Shown here: positions 12,117 to 49,163 of the stretch, piece by piece
How the letters are laid out: every line of letters begins with the position of its first letter
Numbering within the stretch: the stretch's first letter is position 1
IMG/VR virus record: IMGVR_UViG_3300011115_000650
Source: a virus
Length of the DNA: 64,000 nucleotides
Direction: 5' to 3' (one strand)
Program-made: the position numbers and the translations under genes
Notes under the pieces: model-generated
What the model saw: the letters and a program-made list of their open reading frames with translations, nothing else
Databases searched by the model: none
What the model was told of the DNA's origin: nothing

Positions 12117-12734
12117 CTACTTTACTTTTTTACCTCTTACCCATCCTTCAGGTACTGGATCATCTTTTGTTATCTTTCTAACCTCTACTCCATTTGTGAT
12201 GTATCTTACACCGTACTGAGAGTTTAACACTCCTTTCTGTTTTAAAGCGTTTGCTAATCCGATTTTCTTTTTCGTCTCTTCTCTATGCTTCCTACCTATC
12301 CAGTTTGGTACTGTAGGTTTACGAGTTCCACTTTCGTAAAGCTTTTTATTTCTTTCACTACATATTTTGGAAAACTTTTCTTTGAAGACCGGGTCTTTTA
12401 GTTTCTCTTTAAACCCTCGAGTAGCAGCTAAGTGTGCTCCACCTACACCTCCTGTTTTTAAATTCATACAGTTGAGATCTTTCATTAGATCGTCATTAAC
12501 AAGTTCTTTCTCTCTCTCAGCTAACTCCTCACGAGTGCTATAATACTCTAAAATTTCACATTTAAAATTAGATTTACCGTGCTTTCTAATAGCTCTTCTT
12601 AATCTTGTACCACTTCCAAGATAACCATCTTTTAAATTTGAAGTAGAATGCATTCCTACATAATACTCTCCGTTTAAAAGATTGGTTGTCTTGTAGATGA
12701 AGTGATGTTTTTTACTTTCATTGATGTTTGCCAT
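12117..12734 (-). mobile_element. GIY-YIG homing endonuclease (Seg-like, NUMOD3) at the tmRNA 3' end
   Basis: FIYKTTN...YYVG...YLGSG...F..EIL; GRKHREETKKKI; probable ATG at 12734. Confidence 0.88.
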
Positions 12735-12778
12735 ATCTATCTTTATAATAAATAGTACAAAAGTCAAAAAAGTGCCCG

Positions 12779-13326
12779 AGGAGATGACGGGAGTCGAACC
12801 CGTGTCTTGATATGGAAACGTAACACCAACGTCTCACACGCTTAGCTACTCTGTTCTACTCAGAAGCAGGAGGTAGATCTAGGGTGGAATGCTTATCTCA
12901 GCAGCAGACGTACGAAACGTTCCCTTGATTAGTAATGGGACTGTAGTGGTAGCTACAGTAGGTCCACCACTTGGTTGATTCGGGTTCAACCAAGAAAACC
13001 TTTAGAGATCACCTACCAAAGGTAAATGATTAACTCAACCGCCCCGATTACACACATTCTTGACGGGGATCATTCCAACATTGTGACCACTTTACGGTAG
13101 TTGGATATGCAAATTTTGTAACTATTCTGTTCCAAGGTCAGTCACCAACCTGAAGATTACGCTGCTACAGCAACTGACTCGAAAGCCATGTTGATGATAG
13201 ATGCACCGATTTCTTGACGAGATGTTTTTTCTGCGTTTATTGTTTTACAAGTATTTAAGGACGTTCATGCTTTGTCCGCGTGTGGTGCTACCCTTCTGCA
13301 TACCAATCAAATGCCAGGACATCCCC
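12779..13326 (-). ncRNA. ssrA: tmRNA, ~548 nt, tag AEKTSRQEIGASIINMAFESVAVAA*
   Basis: 5' GGGGAUG pairs with 3' CAUCUCC including G3-U70; T-arm GGUUCGACUCC; resume context AAUAAAC|GCA; tag ORF 13157-13234 ends in AA. Confidence 0.93.
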
Positions 13327-23753: not shown

Positions 23754-23996
23754 TTATTTTAACCAAAATTTCCACCATGGTTTTGAAGGAGTTACCTTAG
23801 GCTTACCCACTAACGTGATGTGGTTGTAGAGAGAGTTTATAGTCTTATAAACTGTGTAGTGTTGGGTTGGAGGTATTTTAGAGATGTTGACCTGTATATG
23901 GACAGGAACGTGTAGTATTTCTCCATTCTCCATTATCTGAAGTTCAGTATCTACGATGAGATACTCTTTGTTTAGATGTTTTGTATTTCGAATCAC
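23754..23996 (-). CDS. Hypothetical protein with KPWWKFW C-terminus
   Basis: ORF track. Confidence 0.55.
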   Translation of the reverse strand: MIRNTKHLNKEYLIVDTELQIMENGEILHVPVHIQVNISKIPPTQHYTVYKTINSLYNHITLVGKPKVTPSKPWWKFWLK

Positions 23997-24058: not shown

Positions 24059-24094
24059 CTAATTGGAAAGTGGTGCTTTAATTGTTGGGTGTGA
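24059..24094 (-). pseudogene. Relic thyA 3' end (SHPTIKAPLSN*)
   Basis: TCA CAC CCA ACA ATT AAA GCA CCA CTT TCC AAT TAG downstream of the HEG; the active thyA ends SHPAIKIPLSN*. Confidence 0.88.
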
Positions 24095-24104
24095 TTAAAA
24101 TACA

Positions 24105-24929
24105 CTAATCTACAAACATCCAATTGTATTTATTTGAGTTGCATCTGTAGTTAACTAATCCTCTCGTAATACCAAAAGCTTTTGCTGCTTCCTGACCTGT
24201 TTGATAGAGAACACCATCAGCTTTTACTTTCTTGCTATTTGAAGGCTTGATTGTTCTAGCATTAGCGTACTCTCTAAGCTTCTGTTTAGTTTCTTCCGTA
24301 TGGGTCTTTCCGTAAAATGGATTGTTAGCTCCTGACCTATCTCTACATTTACCGCAAGCTTTAGACGTCGGATCTATTCTTGCTCCACAATCACAAAAGG
24401 TACGTCCTCCTTTCCAATTTGGATTATTATCACCTTCATAACTTCGACGATTATTCGTACACCTCTCGATCAACTCGGTTGGCTTTTGCTTGCCTTTCCA
24501 GTACCCTTCCTTTCCATACATTCCATTATTCTGTCCTCTAACCTTAGTAGACCTCTCCTCTCGCTCTTCTGCTGATAGAGAATCCCAATACTGCTTTGCT
24601 GTTATTGATTTCTTTTCAAGGTACTCCGGATCGGTGTAGTTGATAAAACTAGAGGTATCACCACCGGTTCCTCCTTCAGTTAGGTTGTATCCGTTTTCGA
24701 TAGCGTTCTTTTCTTTAATCCAGTAAACCTCTCTACTGTTAAGATCTTCCTTATCTATACACTCTTCTAAGATACACTTTGTAAAATTCTCTAGCCCATA
24801 CTTCTGTATAGCTGCTTTGATTAGCTTGCCACTACCAAAATACGAATCGAAGTTAGATCCGCTATACTGTCCAATGTACATTTTTCCATTGAGATTATTT
24901 TTAATCTCGTAGACTATAAATCTTTTCAT
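24105..24929 (-). mobile_element. GIY-YIG homing endonuclease with NUMOD3 repeats
   Basis: IVYEIKN...MYIG...YFGSG, GYNLTEGG, NPFYGKTHTEETK. Confidence 0.9.
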
Positions 24930-24984
24930 ATTGATACTGTGTTAGGTTTACCCTTTAATATAAATATCAGAAAAGTAGAAAAAG

Positions 24985-26148
24985 CTAATTAGAAAGTGGA
25001 ATTTTTATAGCTGGGTGGCTTTGATATCCTTCGATAATAAAATCACCAATCTCATAATGTGCGATGTCATCAACTTTACTATTTAGTATTTTTAACTTCG
25101 GTAATGGGTATGGCTCCCTACTAATCTGTTCCTTAACACCATCAATTTGATTTAGGTAGATGTGACAATCTCCCATATTCGCAATTAATTCATCAGGAAC
25201 CATATTAACTTCTTTGGCTATGATTTCTAAAAGTAGAGCATAACTTGCGATGTTGAATGGGGTACCCAACGGAACATCTTGACTTCTAGTATTATACATT
25301 AAAGAGATTGCTCTGGTTGGGATATTCCATTTATTCATTAACTCAATTATGATGTCATCTTCATTTCTACTATGTCCATAATCTAATAATGATTCATATT
25401 TAAGAACATCAATAGCGTAATCCTTTCTTTCATTTAAACTCAACTCTCTTGTATAAACTTGAAATCCATAATGACAAGGTGGAAGTACCATTGAATCCAA
25501 TTCTCCAACATTCCAAGCATTAACCATTAATCGTCTTGAGTCTGGATTTGTTTTAAGGTCGTTGATTAGGTTTGCGATTTGGTCAACTGCACTCGTTTCT
25601 ACTACAATACTATCATCTGACATATTGTACATTTCCTCAAATTTTCTACGTCTAACATTAGTTGTTTCCCATCTTCTCCATTGATGTCCATAAATTTTTC
25701 CGAGTGACCCCCATTTATTAGCAAACTCATCATCTGTTTTGATTTTGTTGATAAATTCTTCTTCTGATAATATCTCACCATTTTCATTAAATGGTGTTGG
25801 TTTTATTTTTTTACCACCATCTATTTTTAAATAAAAATCATATACTTCTTTATTTTGATTAATTTTTTCAAAAAACGATTTATATGCGTCACCTGTCCAG
25901 ATATTACATTCATTATCAACTAAGTACTTAATATTAGTATCTCCACGTAAGAACCAAAGAAGCTCAGTTACCATAGTTTTAAAAGCTATCTTCTTGGTAG
26001 TTAGGAGTGGAAATCCTTCGGACATTTTATGTCTTATCTGTCTTCCAAATACTGATATAGTACCCGTTCCTGTTCTATCTTGTTTAGTTACCCCATTGTC
26101 TAAAATGTCTTGGAGTAGGTCTGTGTATTGTTTATCTATTGTATTCAT
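24985..26148 (-). CDS. thyA: Thymidylate synthase with large insertions
   Basis: DRTGTGT, ELLWFLRG, PDSRRL, LPPCH, RSQD..LG.PFN, GDCHIY. Confidence 0.95.
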   Translation of the reverse strand: MNTIDKQYTDLLQDILDNGVTKQDRTGTGTISVFGRQIRHKMSEGFPLLTTKKIAFKTMVTELLWFLRGDTNIKYLVDNECNIWTGDAYKSFFEKINQNKEVYDFYLKIDGGKKIKPTPFNENGEILSEEEFINKIKTDDEFANKWGSLGKIYGHQWRRWETTNVRRRKFEEMYNMSDDSIVVETSAVDQIANLINDLKTNPDSRRLMVNAWNVGELDSMVLPPCHYGFQVYTRELSLNERKDYAIDVLKYESLLDYGHSRNEDDIIIELMNKWNIPTRAISLMYNTRSQDVPLGTPFNIASYALLLEIIAKEVNMVPDELIANMGDCHIYLNQIDGVKEQISREPYPLPKLKILNSKVDDIAHYEIGDFIIEGYQSHPAIKIPLSN

Positions 26149-36811: not shown

Positions 36812-36913
36812 TTATCCTAGTCCAAAGACTACATGTGCAAATAGTAAACCTAGTATACTACTTACTACTATTATACCTATTTCAAATAAGGTATCTTTTG
36901 TTTTCTGTGTCAT
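36812..36913 (-). CDS. 33-aa single-TM peptide
   Basis: Manual translation MTQKTKDTLFEIGIIVVSSILGLLFAHVVFGLG; follows the last array repeat. Confidence 0.5.
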   Translation of the reverse strand: MTQKTKDTLFEIGIIVVSSILGLLFAHVVFGLG

Positions 36914-36914
36914 G

Positions 36915-37109
36915 TTATGTATTTAATGTTTTACCGTACTTTTTTAGAATGTATTGTAGTTTAGACATTCCTTTGCTTAATCCTTCTACTGTAGGTACTT
37001 CTTCATCATACATGGTTAGTCCTTCTACAATTACGGACTCTGCTTCTACACAATCAAAGCAAAATCCCATTCTTAGCTCTTTTTCTCTATTGCAGCATTT
37101 ACATTTCAT
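36915..37109 (-). CDS. Cassette ORF, Zn-finger-like, ends KTLNT
   Basis: CKCC...CFDC. Confidence 0.65.
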   Translation of the reverse strand: MKCKCCNREKELRMGFCFDCVEAESVIVEGLTMYDEEVPTVEGLSKGMSKLQYILKKYGKTLNT

Positions 37110-37112
37110 AAT

Positions 37113-37319
37113 TTATACGTTTAATGTTTTATTCCATATTGTACTAAATACAAATGTGTTTCCCTCTTGTCCCTTTCCCGAAATATTCATTCTTTTATTG
37201 GTATTTTCACATACAACATATTCGATGCCCTTTGAGTCTAGTTTACCAGTGTAGTTTTGATGTGTTTTTCCGCATCTACCGCAGTTATCTGTTTTCCACT
37301 TATTACTAGTCTTTTTCAT
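37113..37319 (-). CDS. Cassette ORF, ends WNKTLNV like QueE
   Basis: CGRC..H...C. Confidence 0.65.
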   Translation of the reverse strand: MKKTSNKWKTDNCGRCGKTHQNYTGKLDSKGIEYVVCENTNKRMNISGKGQEGNTFVFSTIWNKTLNV

Positions 37320-37328
37320 ATTATGCGT

Positions 37329-37523
37329 TTAGTGTTTTATTAATAGATCTAATTCAATAATTTCTGGGTAGCCGTAGTAAGATTTTTTCTCTAGTATTTC
37401 TTTAACATATGATTCAGCATCTGCTTTATTAAAGAATACTTTAGCGTATTCAAAGTCATGCGGTTCGTACTCCATCTCTCCACATACTAAATAGCATTTC
37501 GGTTTAGGGATATCTAGTTCCAT
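37329..37523 (-). CDS. Cassette ORF, hypothetical
   Basis: ORF between repeats. Confidence 0.62.
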   Translation of the reverse strand: MELDIPKPKCYLVCGEMEYEPHDFEYAKVFFNKADAESYVKEILEKKSYYGYPEIIELDLLIKH

Positions 37524-37540
37524 ATTATACGTTTAATGTT

Positions 37541-37801
37541 TTATACTTTTTCGTACGTTGCTTCGAATATGTCTGGTTTACATGGGTAGTACTCTCCTTT
37601 TATGCCTCTGATTATATAATCGCCTATTGAAGCAACCATCTCTCCTTCTAGGGTTGGTATCTTTATACATGATTTACCATTATCATCTCTTGAAACTTTA
37701 AAATGTGATACTTCATTAATTGAAAATTCATCAAGACATCTGAAGTTTCCATCGTACTGTACCGCTTCAATTACTACTGGTTTTTTTCTGTATTGTGCCA
37801 T
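37541..37801 (-). CDS. Cassette ORF, common phage protein
   Basis: YRKKPVVIEAVQ...TLEG.M....GDYII.G..GE.YPCKPDIF..TYE. Confidence 0.8.
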   Translation of the reverse strand: MAQYRKKPVVIEAVQYDGNFRCLDEFSINEVSHFKVSRDDNGKSCIKIPTLEGEMVASIGDYIIRGIKGEYYPCKPDIFEATYEKV

Positions 37802-37832
37802 ATTATACGTTTAGTGTTTTTTAACTAACTTT

Positions 37833-37916
37833 CTATTTTTTACTTCTATCGTGTATTGTTATTTCGATTCCTCCACAAAGAAATATGATTATTATTAATA
37901 TTACGACTGCTACCAT
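37833..37916 (-). CDS. Cassette ORF, 27-aa hydrophobic peptide
   Basis: Manual translation MVAVVILIIIIFLCGGIEITIHDRSKK. Confidence 0.45.
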   Translation of the reverse strand: MVAVVILIIIIFLCGGIEITIHDRSKK

Positions 37917-37917
37917 A

Positions 37918-38769
37918 TTATACGTTTAGTGTTTTATCCCAAGCGGATATATGTAATCTTGTTAAGCCTCTAAATCTATACTTCTTAGCCATCTCTAATA
38001 CGAATTGAGTACGCTCATGGAAGTCAGTTTGACTATCTAGTCCCGGCATACAAACCACGTTGGTAAGAGGTATGCGATATGGTACGATAAAGTCACGGAA
38101 TACTTCCTTAACATCATCTTCAGTTGAAATAACGAACTTAAATTGATAGTTATCATGCTCCATAATACGTTTAATAGCGTCTGGATTGATACGTTGTTTC
38201 TCAGTCATACCTGAGTTGGATAGCTTTGGTGAGCAGTTGATTTGACTTAACCAACTAAATAACTCATCTTCAATTACTATAGTACCGTTAGTTTCTATTT
38301 CATGGTACGGTATACATTCTTCAGTACTACCTGGTTGTTTTAATTCCCAATTACTCCAATACTCTAAAAAATTAACAATCGCCTCTTGATGTCCTTTAAT
38401 TGTAGGTTCACCACCAGTCCAAATAATGTGGATAGTACCATCTAGAATATCTTCATAGATACCTTGTTCCTTCCATTGATCAATCAGATATTGAAACTCC
38501 TTATCTTCACCTCTCCATAACCATTGTGATGTTGAATCACAGGTCCAGGTTGCTTTACCTTCAGCATGTAAATCACCGACGAATATCTCTCCGTCTTCTA
38601 GTTTTTCTTCTTTAGCTAATTGATTAGTAAACTTACGACTCATACCACAGGTTAGGTTGCATATACCTAATCTAACGAAATAAGACGGTACACCGCTACT
38701 TATTCCCTCTCCTTGGACTGAATAGAAGTCTGAGCTAATCAATAACTTGTTTGGATCTATTTTACTCAT
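37918..38769 (-). CDS. queE: 7-carboxy-7-deazaguanine synthase (radical SAM)
   Basis: FYSVQGEG, FVRL..CNLTC...CDS, TGGEP, IETNGT, SPKL. Confidence 0.93.
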   Translation of the reverse strand: MSKIDPNKLLISSDFYSVQGEGISSGVPSYFVRLGICNLTCGMSRKFTNQLAKEEKLEDGEIFVGDLHAEGKATWTCDSTSQWLWRGEDKEFQYLIDQWKEQGIYEDILDGTIHIIWTGGEPTIKGHQEAIVNFLEYWSNWELKQPGSTEECIPYHEIETNGTIVIEDELFSWLSQINCSPKLSNSGMTEKQRINPDAIKRIMEHDNYQFKFVISTEDDVKEVFRDFIVPYRIPLTNVVCMPGLDSQTDFHERTQFVLEMAKKYRFRGLTRLHISAWDKTLNV

Positions 38770-40807: not shown

Positions 40808-41530
40808 TTATTTTTTTAATTTTAAAGTTTCTATATTCTCTATACTCCAATTAGATATCTCCGATATTGTATATACGGCGTAACCAGCTTCTTTAAAAGT
40901 CTTACCTATGTGTAGTCTATCATGTTCTTTTAATTTATGGCTAGTAGCTGCTACTGCTACCGGCGTTATTATTTTACTCGAATTCAAACACCTCTTACGT
41001 AACGTACTCATATCGATACCTATACTTTTATGTGCAGTTAGTAAAGATGAGAAATTTCCTATTGGGGTTATGTAAATGTATTTAGCTTTTCCCCCCACTC
41101 TTAAAGGGCTTTCTTGAAACTCTACTACAGTGCAAGAACCTCTAGATCCTGTTGCTAAATCTAAGTAACTTACCGTTCCTGCAGGAGAAGCTCTCTTGAC
41201 CCTATTCCGTAGCTTAACTTTCAACTCTACTAACTGATCTGCTTCTAATCCTCTGTACGTATTTCCCCCTTCACCACCAGATGCTATGTTATAAAACTGA
41301 GAACTTTCTACTGCGTTTAACAGCTTTATCCACTTTATTTCGCCTTTTCGAGTATCCTCAACATTAATATACCTCTCCAGTATAATTCTAGTAAAGTTAT
41401 CAGCACCATACTTTTCGATAGCTCTTTTTAGTAACTTACCTGAGCCTATGTAGTTATTTGATTCTGGACCTTCGTATTTTCCTATATAGCTCTTACCGTT
41501 AACTAAACATACTGTTAAATATACAAACAT
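40808..41530 (-). mobile_element. GIY-YIG homing endonuclease
   Basis: FVYLT...SYIG...YIGSG, FYNIASGG. Confidence 0.87.
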
Positions 41531-44422: not shown

Positions 44423-45304
44423 TTAATGAAATTCTGCTAATACTTGTTCTACTTGACTCTTTGCAAATTGCCAACTCACAGGCCCAATTTCATCAGCATA
44501 TTCTACAGGATCTGGACGACCTAATTTAATAAATGCTTCAATACGTTCTACTGATGCTGCTGATTTGTAGTCAGAAAACCATACCATTTCAGCATCTTCA
44601 GAATTACCTATTACGTGTTGGATTGGTTTATAAGATGTATTAGTACGCTTATATACCTCATCAAAATCTAATCTTAATTCTTCACAGCATTTCAAACCAT
44701 CTTCCAATATACCAAATTTATCAATATCAAGATATGGAGTATAGAATGATACTAATTCAGAATCCCAATTACCGATTCTAAATGCTTCCATATCAGCATC
44801 TCTAAATTGTTGTCTACAGTCAGGGTATATAGCATGGTCTCCAGCATGTATTCCTAGAGCAATTGCTACTTGATGTTTATCACCGGTAGTAGCTAGAGAT
44901 AGTGCAACTGCTTGTATAATAGAACTAAATATCTTATTACGATTAGGTACAACAGTTTCTTTCATGTTGTCTTGTTGGTAGTGTCCTTCGGGGACTTCGT
45001 TACCGCCTGTAACTAGAGCTGAATTTAATAGCTGAGCTAGACCATCTAGTTTGATTACTTGATGCTTTACTATAGGATACACTTCTCCCCAGCCTCCAGG
45101 AGCTCTATCTGCTGGATATACTCTAGTCGGTAATGTATTAATATACTTTACTAACGATTGTGCTCGTTCTAATTCTACTCTATGCTTTTGACCATAGTCG
45201 AATGATAGAGCGGTTACTTCATAGCCATTGGCAAGTAGATGAAGTAGTAATGTACTACTGTCTAACCCCCCGCTAAGGCTTAATACTGCTTGTTTTTTGT
45301 TCAT
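44423..45304 (-). CDS. queC: 7-cyano-7-deazaguanine synthase
   Basis: SGGLDS, FDYGQKH, VPNRN, YPDCR. Confidence 0.95.
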   Translation of the reverse strand: MNKKQAVLSLSGGLDSSTLLLHLLANGYEVTALSFDYGQKHRVELERAQSLVKYINTLPTRVYPADRAPGGWGEVYPIVKHQVIKLDGLAQLLNSALVTGGNEVPEGHYQQDNMKETVVPNRNKIFSSIIQAVALSLATTGDKHQVAIALGIHAGDHAIYPDCRQQFRDADMEAFRIGNWDSELVSFYTPYLDIDKFGILEDGLKCCEELRLDFDEVYKRTNTSYKPIQHVIGNSEDAEMVWFSDYKSAASVERIEAFIKLGRPDPVEYADEIGPVSWQFAKSQVEQVLAEFH

Positions 45305-45377
45305 ATAAAAATTAAAATTATTAATACAGGGTGTATTATTTTATGAATCGATTAACCCTATAACCGATATATTAAAT

Positions 45378-45947
45378 TTATGCTTTTTGTTTAAATCTTC
45401 CAATAAATCGACCGTGTATTTTTTCATGGCATTCTACACAAACTGCTTTACCGTTCTCAACACTAAAAGCTTTACTTAAATCTTCACTTATTGGAACTAT
45501 GTGATGAGCATGTAAGTAACTTTTTGCACCACAGTCTTGACAGGTGTAATTATCTCTCTTAAAAACTTCCTGCCTCCACTCTTTCATTTTAGGGTCATTC
45601 CTCTTTTTTTGATTAGCACCCGTTTTACCTCCTTTCCAGTTATTATTTGCAGGACCTGTTTGATTACGTCCATATGCAGGATTGTCTTTTCCTTTCTTAA
45701 ATTGAGTTTGTTTTGCTTTTTCCGATACTTTTAAAGCTTTTGAGAGATTTGCTTTATGTGATTCTGATTTAGGTTTTCCAGTTAATGCTAGAGATAGTTT
45801 CTCTCTCATTCCTGGAGTACATCTTTTCTCTACAGTGCTCTTATTAGCACACTTCTTACTACAGTATTCTCTTTTTAAATAATTCTCTTTTGATGTTCTA
45901 GTCGTATTTTCGAATTCAGCTCCACACACTTTACACGTAGGTTTCAT
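45378..45947 (-). mobile_element. HNH homing endonuclease with NUMOD3
   Basis: RDNYTCQDC...HAHHI...NG...C..CH...H; GKPKSESHK. Confidence 0.88.
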
Positions 45948-45973
45948 AGTCACTCTTATTTATTATAAATAGT

Positions 45974-46015
45974 AAGACCTCCGGGTAAACACAAGACTGC
46001 TTGTTTTTTACTCAT
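45974..46015 (-). pseudogene. Relic queC 5' end (MSKKQAVLCLPGGL)
   Basis: Upstream of the HNH gene; the active queC begins MNKKQAVLSLSGGL. Confidence 0.85.
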
Positions 46016-46846: not shown

Positions 46847-47443
46847 TTATACGTATACTTTACCTTTTATACCTGGACACATTTGTTTAATTTCTTTTTT
46901 AGTATATTTCTTACTTACTGGTGTATTACTTAAATTAAGACTTCCTCCTATTTTTAAACCTTGCGGTAAGGTAGTAATTGGAGTATTGCTTAAATAAAGA
47001 TCTCCTCCTACTTGTAAACCTTGAGGTAATGATGCTATTTTAGTATTGCTTAAATAAAGATCTCCTCCTACCTGTAAACCTTGTGGTAATGATGCTATTT
47101 TAGTCTTACCTAAATAAAGATCTCCTTTTACTTCTAAATCTTGAGGTAATGAAGTTATCTTGTTGGAAACTAAGTAAAGATTTCTATCTACTTTTAAACC
47201 TTGTGGTAATGTAGTAATTGGAGTATTGCTTAAATAGAGACTACCTCCTACTTCTAAATCTTGCGGTAGGGATGTTATTGGTGTATTGCTTAAATTGAGA
47301 TCACCTTTGCTACCATTGGTTACATACTGCTTAATCTTTTTTTGTAGAGCTATTGCATAATTTTTCTTACGCTCTTCTTTAGAACGTCTAGGAACTAATA
47401 TTGATTCCTCACTTTCTCTTAGTATGTCTAGTAATTTAATCAT
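46847..47443 (-). CDS. Leucine-rich repeat protein (20-aa units, ~7 repeats)
   Basis: LxLSNTPITSLPQxLxVGG repeats; leader MIKLLDILRE. Confidence 0.88.
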   Translation of the reverse strand: MIKLLDILRESEESILVPRRSKEERKKNYAIALQKKIKQYVTNGSKGDLNLSNTPITSLPQDLEVGGSLYLSNTPITTLPQGLKVDRNLYLVSNKITSLPQDLEVKGDLYLGKTKIASLPQGLQVGGDLYLSNTKIASLPQGLQVGGDLYLSNTPITTLPQGLKIGGSLNLSNTPVSKKYTKKEIKQMCPGIKGKVYV

Positions 47444-48206: not shown

Positions 48207-49163
48207 TTATACTCTAACGTCATCTTTTATACCAGGGTACATTTGTTTAATTTGTTCTTTAGTATATTTTTTAGATATCGGTGTATTACTTAAATTAAGA
48301 CTTCCTCCTACTTTTAAACCTTGCGGTAATGAAGTTATTGAGGTATTACTTAAATTAAGACTTCCTCCTACTTTTAAACCTTGCGGTAATGAAGTTATTG
48401 AGGTATTACTTAAATTAAGACTTTCTCTTACTTCTAAATCTTTAGGTAGTGAAGTGATTGGTGTATTGCTTAAATCAAGATATCCTCCTACTTCTAAATC
48501 TTGAGGTAGAGATGTTATTTTAGTATCATCTAAATAAAGATCTCCTCCTACTTTTAAACCTTGCGGTAATGAAGTTATTGAGGTATTACTTAAATTAAGA
48601 CTTTCTCTTACTTCTAAATCTTTAGGTAGTGAAGTGATTGGTGTATTAACTAGCCAAAGAGATGCTCCTACTTCTAAATCTTGAGGTAGAGATGTTATTT
48701 TAGTATCATCTAAATAAAGACTTCCTCCTATTTTTAAACCTTGCGGTAATGAAGTTATTGAGGTATTACTTAAATTAAGACTTCCTCTTACTTCTAAATC
48801 TTTAGGTAGTGAAGTGATTGAAGTATTCCTTAGATTAAGATATCCTTTTACTTCTAGACCTTCAGGTAATGTAGTGATTGGTGTACCGCTTAAAAAAAGA
48901 TCTCCTCCTACTTTTAAACCTTGTGGTAAGGTATTAATTGGAGTATTGCTTAAATAAAGATCTCCTCCTACTTTTAAACCTTGCGGTAATGAAGTGATTG
49001 GAGTGTTTTTTAAATTAAGATCACCTTTGCTACCACCAGCTATATACTGTTTAATCTTTTTCTGTACAGCTATTAAGTGATTCTTCTCACGCTCTTCTTT
49101 AGATCGTCTAGGAACTAAAATTGATTCCTCACTTTCCCTTAATATATCTAATAATTTAATCAT
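48207..49163 (-). CDS. Leucine-rich repeat protein (20-aa units, ~13 repeats)
   Basis: 60-bp tandem units, some exactly duplicated; first 25 aa identical to 46847-47443. Confidence 0.9.
   Translation of the reverse strand: MIKLLDILRESEESILVPRRSKEEREKNHLIAVQKKIKQYIAGGSKGDLNLKNTPITSLPQGLKVGGDLYLSNTPINTLPQGLKVGGDLFLSGTPITTLPEGLEVKGYLNLRNTSITSLPKDLEVRGSLNLSNTSITSLPQGLKIGGSLYLDDTKITSLPQDLEVGASLWLVNTPITSLPKDLEVRESLNLSNTSITSLPQGLKVGGDLYLDDTKITSLPQDLEVGGYLDLSNTPITSLPKDLEVRESLNLSNTSITSLPQGLKVGGSLNLSNTSITSLPQGLKVGGSLNLSNTPISKKYTKEQIKQMYPGIKDDVRV

Follow-up and report, generated by a model that had tools for sequence, protein, structure and literature searches.

Homing endonucleases and the conserved genes that they invade are known in several arrangements. 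In bacteriophage T4, I-TevI is encoded in an intron of the thymidylate synthase gene td, and the intron splits the target site; intronless td is cut at a CNNNG motif that lies 23-25 nt upstream of the point of insertion. The T4 Seg and Mob endonucleases (SegF, SegG, SegE and MobE) are intergenic nucleases beside conserved genes; they are present or absent in otherwise near-identical genomes, their flanks are co-converted over hundreds of bases, and they cut away from their insertion site (PMC2988022). In the T4-like Aeromonas phage Aeh1, the free-standing nuclease gene mobE lies in nrdA, a conserved gene of nucleotide metabolism that is split into two polypeptides and keeps its function (PMC2988022). 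Additionally, fungal mitochondria have mobile-ORF gene hybrids (Allomyces macrogynus atp6; Glomus atp6, atp9, cox2 and nad3), in which an endonuclease ORF has brought along a foreign C-terminal part that continues the frame of the native 5' part, while the native C-terminus is stranded downstream (PMC3630166). In this report we analyse a 64,000-nucleotide (nt) stretch of viral DNA, IMG/VR record IMGVR_UViG_3300011115_000650 (the window), in which a GIY-YIG homing endonuclease gene (HEG) stands between the thymidylate synthase gene thyA and a second copy of the last thyA codons. The locus is best explained, with a probability of roughly 60%, by intronless homing of a free-standing I-TevI-family nuclease into thyA with replacement of the gene end.

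The locus shares with I-TevI and T4 td the catalytic domain, the zinc-finger linker and the DNA-binding domain, the association with thymidylate synthase and, in alleles that lack a HEG, a T4-like CNNNG region. It differs in that there is no group I intron, the nuclease gene follows the thyA stop codon, and 3' replacement rather than splicing keeps the host gene whole. Immunity must here come from sequence change and not from an intron that splits the site, and the host, a freshwater phage, is a relative of the Flavobacterium immuto phages. With the Seg and Mob enzymes the locus has in common the intergenic position, the presence/absence polymorphism, the co-converted flank and a predicted cut away from the insertion site. 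In contrast, no duplicated gene end is reported in the T4 review (PMC2988022), whereas here a relic of the target gene remains and is perhaps reused as a homology arm. Unlike nrdA of Aeh1, thyA stays in one piece through end replacement. The fungal hybrids have the same foreign and stranded C-termini, and in both systems the native relic is closer to the HEG-less relative (91-98% versus 64-81% there, 32/33 versus 26/36 nt here). Their ORF (open reading frame) is often in phase with the gene, whereas here a stop codon, a 55-nt spacer, a promoter-like motif and a separate ATG intervene; moreover, they reside in an organelle and not in a phage, and the relic is here cut to 11 codons (98 in one relative). 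By analogy, the architecture is the phage counterpart of these mobile-ORF hybrids, and mechanistically it would be intronless homing of the Seg/Mob kind. An earlier note on this DNA had proposed a distinct invasion strategy; this is not supported as worded, the strategy being well described in fungal mitochondria (PMC3630166). No report of end replacement beside a nuclease gene in a phage was found in the open-access literature.

The thyA locus and its empty-site counterpart

All genes in the thyA part of the window are coded on the minus strand. The gene thyA (24985-26148) is a contiguous ORF for a complete thymidylate synthase of 387 amino acids (aa; Pfam PF00303, 325.8 bits, profile positions 1-264 of 266). 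Its active tail, SHPAIKIPLSN-stop (24985-25020, IKIP type), is followed by the spacer (24930-24984), with the promoter-like motif at 24945-24967, and by the free-standing GIY-YIG gene of 274 codons (24105-24929). The relic, SHPTIKAPLSN-stop (24059-24094, IKAP type), lies 9 nt past the nuclease stop codon; an in-frame TAA immediately precedes it, so it is not translated within any long ORF. Active tail and relic agree at 26/36 nt and 9/11 residues. The earlier note described two thyA tails with a GIY-YIG gene between them, which is exact, and a host gene kept intact without splicing, which is borne out by the contiguous reading frame: no group I intron was found in the window at the Rfam gathering thresholds, and no split thyA among 163 loci.

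The window phage and its nuclease allele are known from metagenomic data alone. Runs that contain the stretch come from freshwater, river and viral metagenomes of several studies, and among isolated phages only Flavobacterium immuto phages gave nucleotide matches, over a short stretch of thyA. ThyA scans of IMG/VR and metagenomes returned no relative above 66% protein identity. Near-isogenic contigs were found only by exact look-up of the 144-aa product of a gene 0.3 kb downstream of the relic, which returned three contigs. One of them, L244, carries the nuclease gene and is 100% identical to the window. Another, L245, comes from a different sample and has no nuclease gene; its thyA is directly followed by an 80-aa ORF, which in the window forms the common right flank (23754-23996).

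The comparison of L245 with the window defines both ends of the insertion. On the right, L245:568-3925 matches window 24091-20734 at 99.3% identity over 3,358 nt, with 24 mismatches and no gaps; the 200 nt directly after the relic are identical at 194 positions. The thyA tail of L245 matches the relic at 32/33 nt and the active copy at only 25/36. Since both tail and flank agree, the relic is the old end of the resident thyA, as the earlier note had predicted for a HEG-less relative. L245 does not share the first 3 nt of the relic, before 24091, which equal the common tail of other phages. On the left, L245:1-600 and the 3' part of the window thyA (24985-25584) share only 71.8% identity with 16 gaps; the two are identical over 25508-25584 and diverge from about 25507. 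Upstream of this point, L252, a contig from the same sample as L245, matches window 26766-25630 at 98.1%. The swapped block therefore measures about 1.4 kb (about 24092-25507) and comprises thyA codons 214-387, the spacer, the nuclease gene and 13 nt. The foreign 3' part of thyA (24985-25507) belongs to the nuclease-associated allele class. The earlier note had assumed a synonymous substitute of about 12 codons, inserted about 12 codons before the stop. The right junction does lie 11 codons before the stop; the left junction is far upstream, and the replaced part spans 174 codons at 72% DNA identity with many amino-acid changes.

The imported part of thyA resembles that of other phages. Residues 276-387 of the window are 87.5-89.6% identical to those of three relatives (L163, L004 and L003), compared with 62-64% for residues 1-275, and the active IKIP tail is closest to the tails of nuclease-linked alleles (L170, L179 and L189). 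The left junction falls in a patch of frozen synonymous sites (aa 191-230, 25459-25578), where median nucleotide identity to 127 related loci is 88-92%, versus 73-75% in equally conserved protein stretches. This patch, in which several contig ends and a depth spike also fall, acts as a common recombination anchor. Contigs with the upstream gene all end inside thyA, and the left junction is therefore supported by two non-overlapping contigs of one sample, which is a weak point.

Could the second tail be a chance similarity or an assembly artefact? The only hint is that a local nucleotide alignment of the flanks of the nuclease gene alone is borderline, scoring 31 against a shuffle maximum of 32. 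A degenerate tail pattern, however, has exactly two matches in 64 kb, the active tail and the relic, with 0.02 expected, and tail-like peptides followed by a stop are enriched behind thyA in relatives (21 in 322 kb downstream of thyA versus 1 in 1.22 Mb of control sequence, 129 loci). Furthermore, L245 matches as an independent empty-site contig, and the HEG-containing junction recurs at 100% identity in contigs of two further studies (runs X4 and X5). This explanation is refuted, with a residual chance that is close to nil. Three joints in run X5 (24088/24096 to 25110-25182) may be HEG-less forms in the same sample; their sides span only 25-30 nt and they were not counted.

The nuclease, the thyA allele classes and the predicted cut

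The window nuclease is a full-length, free-standing homologue of the I-TevI family without an intron. Its N-terminus is a GIY-YIG domain (PF01541, 28.5 bits against a cut-off of 22.6; PF19835, 30 bits), to which the I-TevI catalytic domain structure 1ln0 of the Protein Data Bank (PDB) aligns (E 3.2e-6). The I-TevI zinc finger (PF22635, 42 bits) and the I-TevI DNA-binding domain (PF20987, 61 bits) are both present, and Pfam also finds NUMOD3 in the 274-aa protein. PDB entry 1i3j, the DNA-binding domain of I-TevI, matches residues 165-273, the C-terminal 109 residues (E 3.5e-25), and T4 I-TevI itself aligns over its full length (33% identity, E 1e-40). Among 50,697 phage records, the best matches are intron-encoded I-TevI genes in td.

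The distribution of such nucleases was examined in 129 non-redundant thyA loci (from IMG/VR, metagenomes of the Joint Genome Institute (JGI), two immuto phages and the window). The relatives of the nuclease beside thyA were found with phmmer on ORFs downstream of thyA, having been missed by the IMG/VR protein scan. A GIY-YIG gene directly follows thyA in 29 of the 129 loci and belongs to one of three lineages, two of which are I-TevI-like; at least one stranded thyA tail is present in 18. The nuclease gene occurs in 0/46 alleles with an IKAP tail versus 29/48 alleles with other tails, and the stranded relics are almost all of the IKAP type. All 65 IKAP alleles (65/65) are nearer to the relic than to the active end, in line with the expectation of relic-type ends in relatives. 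HEG-less relatives with an active-type tail, which the earlier note had named as a finding that would refute it, do exist (L163 and L003); they resemble resistant alleles or loci that have lost the HEG. When the tail was left out of the ThyA tree, about 8 changes of end type and 23 changes of nuclease presence were counted; 5-6 independent pairs point in the same direction and 0 in the opposite one (median p about 0.03). The tree support for the association of tail and nuclease is real, resting on few events. Two marks of intronless homing were found: co-conversion of the thyA flank, and HEG presence or absence between close relatives (L245 versus window and L244; L066/L075 and L077/L218). The latter two pairs show clean presence and absence of the cassette in resistant-type thyA, with the cassette flanked by a 6-nt thyA-end repeat.

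The homology of the enzyme suggests where it might cut. In T4, the td intron is inserted just before LPFNIASY (read from record NC_000866). The equivalent of this homing region in the window (aa 285-303, 25240-25296) is altered: it matches T4 at 30/57 nt, versus 45/57 for the HEG-less consensus, it has no CNNNG at the T4-equivalent cut position, and it shows changes of Phe to Pro and Leu to Thr. HEG-less IKAP alleles carry CNNNG at this position in all 45 scored (45/45), and the L245 empty-site allele belongs to this sensitive kind. In nuclease-linked alleles, CNNNG is missing in 20/29, including 8/8 with window-type enzymes, and codon 293 is altered in 29/29. A scan of positions for association with nuclease presence found none in codons 1-285; the linked positions span aa 286-387, with peaks at 290-296, 328-338 and 381-385. 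In L179 (L179:5053-6223), a window-type nuclease gene, its product 56% identical to that of the window, precedes a sensitive-type copy of the thyA 3' end; this copy has 98 codons with an open frame and begins within one codon of the T4 td insertion-site equivalent. Block boundaries common to several loci are found repeatedly in two places, 15-50 nt upstream of the predicted cut and within the patch of codons 191-230. On this comparison, the nuclease most likely cuts HEG-less sensitive thyA at the T4 td site equivalent, which lies about 100 codons from the stop. The window's own allele would be immune through the lost CNNNG motif, and the recoded tail probably hitch-hikes with the swapped block.

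Several findings weigh against intronless homing into this site. With only about 55% identity to its nearest relatives and 33% to I-TevI, the nuclease may have changed its specificity. Nine nuclease-linked alleles (7 L008-type and 2 L032-type) retain CNNNG. The effective sample is small, given the roughly 8 changes of end type on the tree. The tail (aa 383, mutual information (MI) 0.45) is as strongly associated with the nuclease as the I-TevI-like site, and the comparison alone therefore cannot tell which of the two matters. Relics mostly begin 7-17 codons from the stop, which is simpler under a cut near the tail. Finally, six HEG-less loci (L001, L002, L057, L174, L181 and L207) have a small ORF between two sensitive-type tails; tail duplication therefore also happens without a nuclease gene present.

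The association of the tail and the left ends of the relics suit the reading of the earlier note, in which the nuclease would recognise and cut the last 12-17 codons of HEG-less thyA and the inserted recoded tail would confer immunity. The perfect split of alleles by the Ala codon of the tail and the right junction of the window, 11 codons before the stop, also speak for it. Such a cut leaves unexplained why the swapped block begins 174 codons before the stop, why the linked haplotype of aa 286-387 has equal peaks at the I-TevI-like site, and why the L179 relic begins at the T4 insertion-site equivalent. In addition, the enzyme is an I-TevI homologue down to its DNA-binding domain, and sensitive alleles keep the T4-like cut motif. 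We consider a near-tail cut unlikely. The link between nuclease and tail is one peak among several; both immunity and the cut more likely belong about 100 codons upstream, with the tail free to hitch-hike.

The small ORFs in HEG-less loci bear on another explanation, in which the thyA tail is a recombination linker, the nuclease passive and possibly inactive cargo, and the allele classes ordinary phage mosaicism. In the isolated HEG-less Flavobacterium immuto phages (L001:4905-5144 and L002:4756-5036), a different small ORF stands between thyA and the second tail, and these ORFs end in the same last four residues as ThyA. A comparable array is found at queE in the window itself (36911-37937), where a repeat made up of the last 5 codons, the stop and the start that comes after it occurs five to six times, each copy bounding one small ORF. 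The repeat is confined to its own locus and has no nuclease gene; the array is linker shuffling without a nuclease. The two clean cassette pairs in the resistant background fit this explanation as well. Yet shuffling does not account for the total lack of nuclease genes in sensitive-type alleles, for linked positions that start at the I-TevI-like site, or for three GIY-YIG lineages that all sit at thyA, and the nuclease ORF is full length with every domain present. As a complete account it seems somewhat less probable still than a near-tail cut. Linker-type recombination without a nuclease is nevertheless a real rival for the formation of the junctions, though not for the allele-class pattern.

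Proposed route of invasion

Intronless homing, which we prefer, would proceed as follows. A free-standing I-TevI-family nuclease would spread into thyA, and a donor block of about 1.4 kb (24092-25507) would replace the matching part of the resident gene. Repair would copy the donor from the left homology through the nuclease gene, so that everything from the cut to that gene, tail included, would necessarily be co-converted. The left homology may be a short conserved stretch before the site, or the nucleotide-frozen patch of aa 191-230 beyond a hypervariable insert (codons 236-275); in the window, the left crossover would have fallen in the patch. The right crossover would take place in the conserved last 30 nt or so of thyA. 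In this way the resident's last 11 codons would persist, silent, downstream of the nuclease gene as the relic, and thyA would be kept whole by the imported end. Of this account, the architecture, the homology, the empty-site allele, the block boundaries and the association of allele classes are direct results, and the position of the cut, the immunity, the activity and the role of the homology arm are inferred from them.

The relic might itself serve as a short right-hand homology arm that lets the cassette enter phages with different genes downstream of thyA. Because these genes differ widely, the thyA tail is the only right-hand sequence common to diverse phages. One L008-type junction of nuclease and relic is joined to five unrelated downstream sequences in five loci. 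These five contexts, together with the first 3 nt of the relic, suggest that the relic travels with the cassette as its right arm. The right junctions lie 2 codons (the 6-nt repeat), 7-17 codons or up to 98 codons from the end of the gene, a range that fits crossover or microhomology joining within the tail region.

Relatives show further states of the locus. In L008-type relatives, the nuclease ORF continues in frame into the relic. The third lineage (L032-type; L004:5098-5160 and L200:5131-5192) has a degenerate thyA tail in the interval from the thyA stop to the promoter-like motif, and the L004 nuclease gene has shrunk to 42 codons. The site has therefore seen layered invasions and decay.

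Spacer motif, other loci of the window and wider meaning

The earlier note placed a candidate promoter motif before the nuclease gene. This motif is real: nearly all of the 29 loci with a nuclease have it conserved, 10-30 nt upstream of the start codon. Each of the four nuclease genes in the window is preceded by its short core. The longer spacer motif is unique in the window, which shows no enrichment of the promoter-like octamer. L008-type spacers carry an inverted repeat around the motif that extends as far as the AUG (z about -2.3). For the window's own spacer, a hairpin covering the start codon was also considered and rejected as not significant (z -0.8); the 5' arm is lost.

In T4, endonucleases including I-TevI are controlled by a late promoter inside a hairpin (PMC2988022). 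The L008-type arrangement of a motif within a hairpin parallels this control, and similar regulation may apply here. As a separate observation, L008-type spacers (L053:2113-2200, L028:3662-3750 and others) contain, after the thyA stop, a look-alike of the uninterrupted sensitive homing site over about 21/29 nt. Immediately ahead of the nuclease AUG is the sequence with which the look-alike pairs, the motif being in the loop; this arrangement resembles the operator and hairpin of I-TevI.

The earlier note had seen the same architecture at three or more loci of the window. Besides thyA, this holds for queC, which presents a mirror case (45263-46015). There, the start of queC occurs in a second copy of 14 codons (10/14 residues identical), which ends in the promoter-like motif; an HNH endonuclease gene (45378-45953) and then the functional queC (44423-45304) come after it. 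The transfer-messenger RNA (tmRNA) case is weak: the tmRNA gene (12779-13326; found with Rfam, missed by ARAGORN) has a GIY-YIG gene (12117-12767) within about 45 nt, with the same motif before it, and the proposed second tmRNA acceptor end, past the nuclease gene, amounts to only 7-10 nt. Flank-to-flank alignment detected no duplication around this gene or around the GIY-YIG gene at 40808-41530. The queE array, as described above, is without a nuclease. A scan for duplicated tails also returned a pair of leucine-rich repeat (LRR) genes (46847-47443 and 48207-49163), which was rejected: their common N- and C-terminal caps stem from paralogy and not from end replacement.

For a phage homing endonuclease known only from metagenomes, the filled and the empty site are here available as a natural pair, resolved at sequence level. 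The locus connects I-TevI, the intron endonuclease studied best, with free-standing relatives that apparently use the same target without an intron, and it shows that the mitochondrial solution of a foreign C-terminus plus a stranded native C-terminus also occurs in phages. Directly testable predictions concern the allele that is cut, the position of the cut and whether 30 nt of tail suffice for a homology arm. At conserved residues of this essential enzyme, the sensitive and the resistant allele class further point to a cost of resistance. A more far-reaching proposal, to which we give slightly less than an even chance, is that the free-standing I-TevI orthologues of this freshwater phage clade attack the T4 td intron site and travel with a replacement 'exon 2' and a stranded tail as a portable right arm. 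If true, the I-TevI/td partnership would have a living counterpart without an intron, either its precursor or its derivative. This would bear on how endonucleases and introns joined, and end replacement would be a general mode of invasion in phages, used also at queC.

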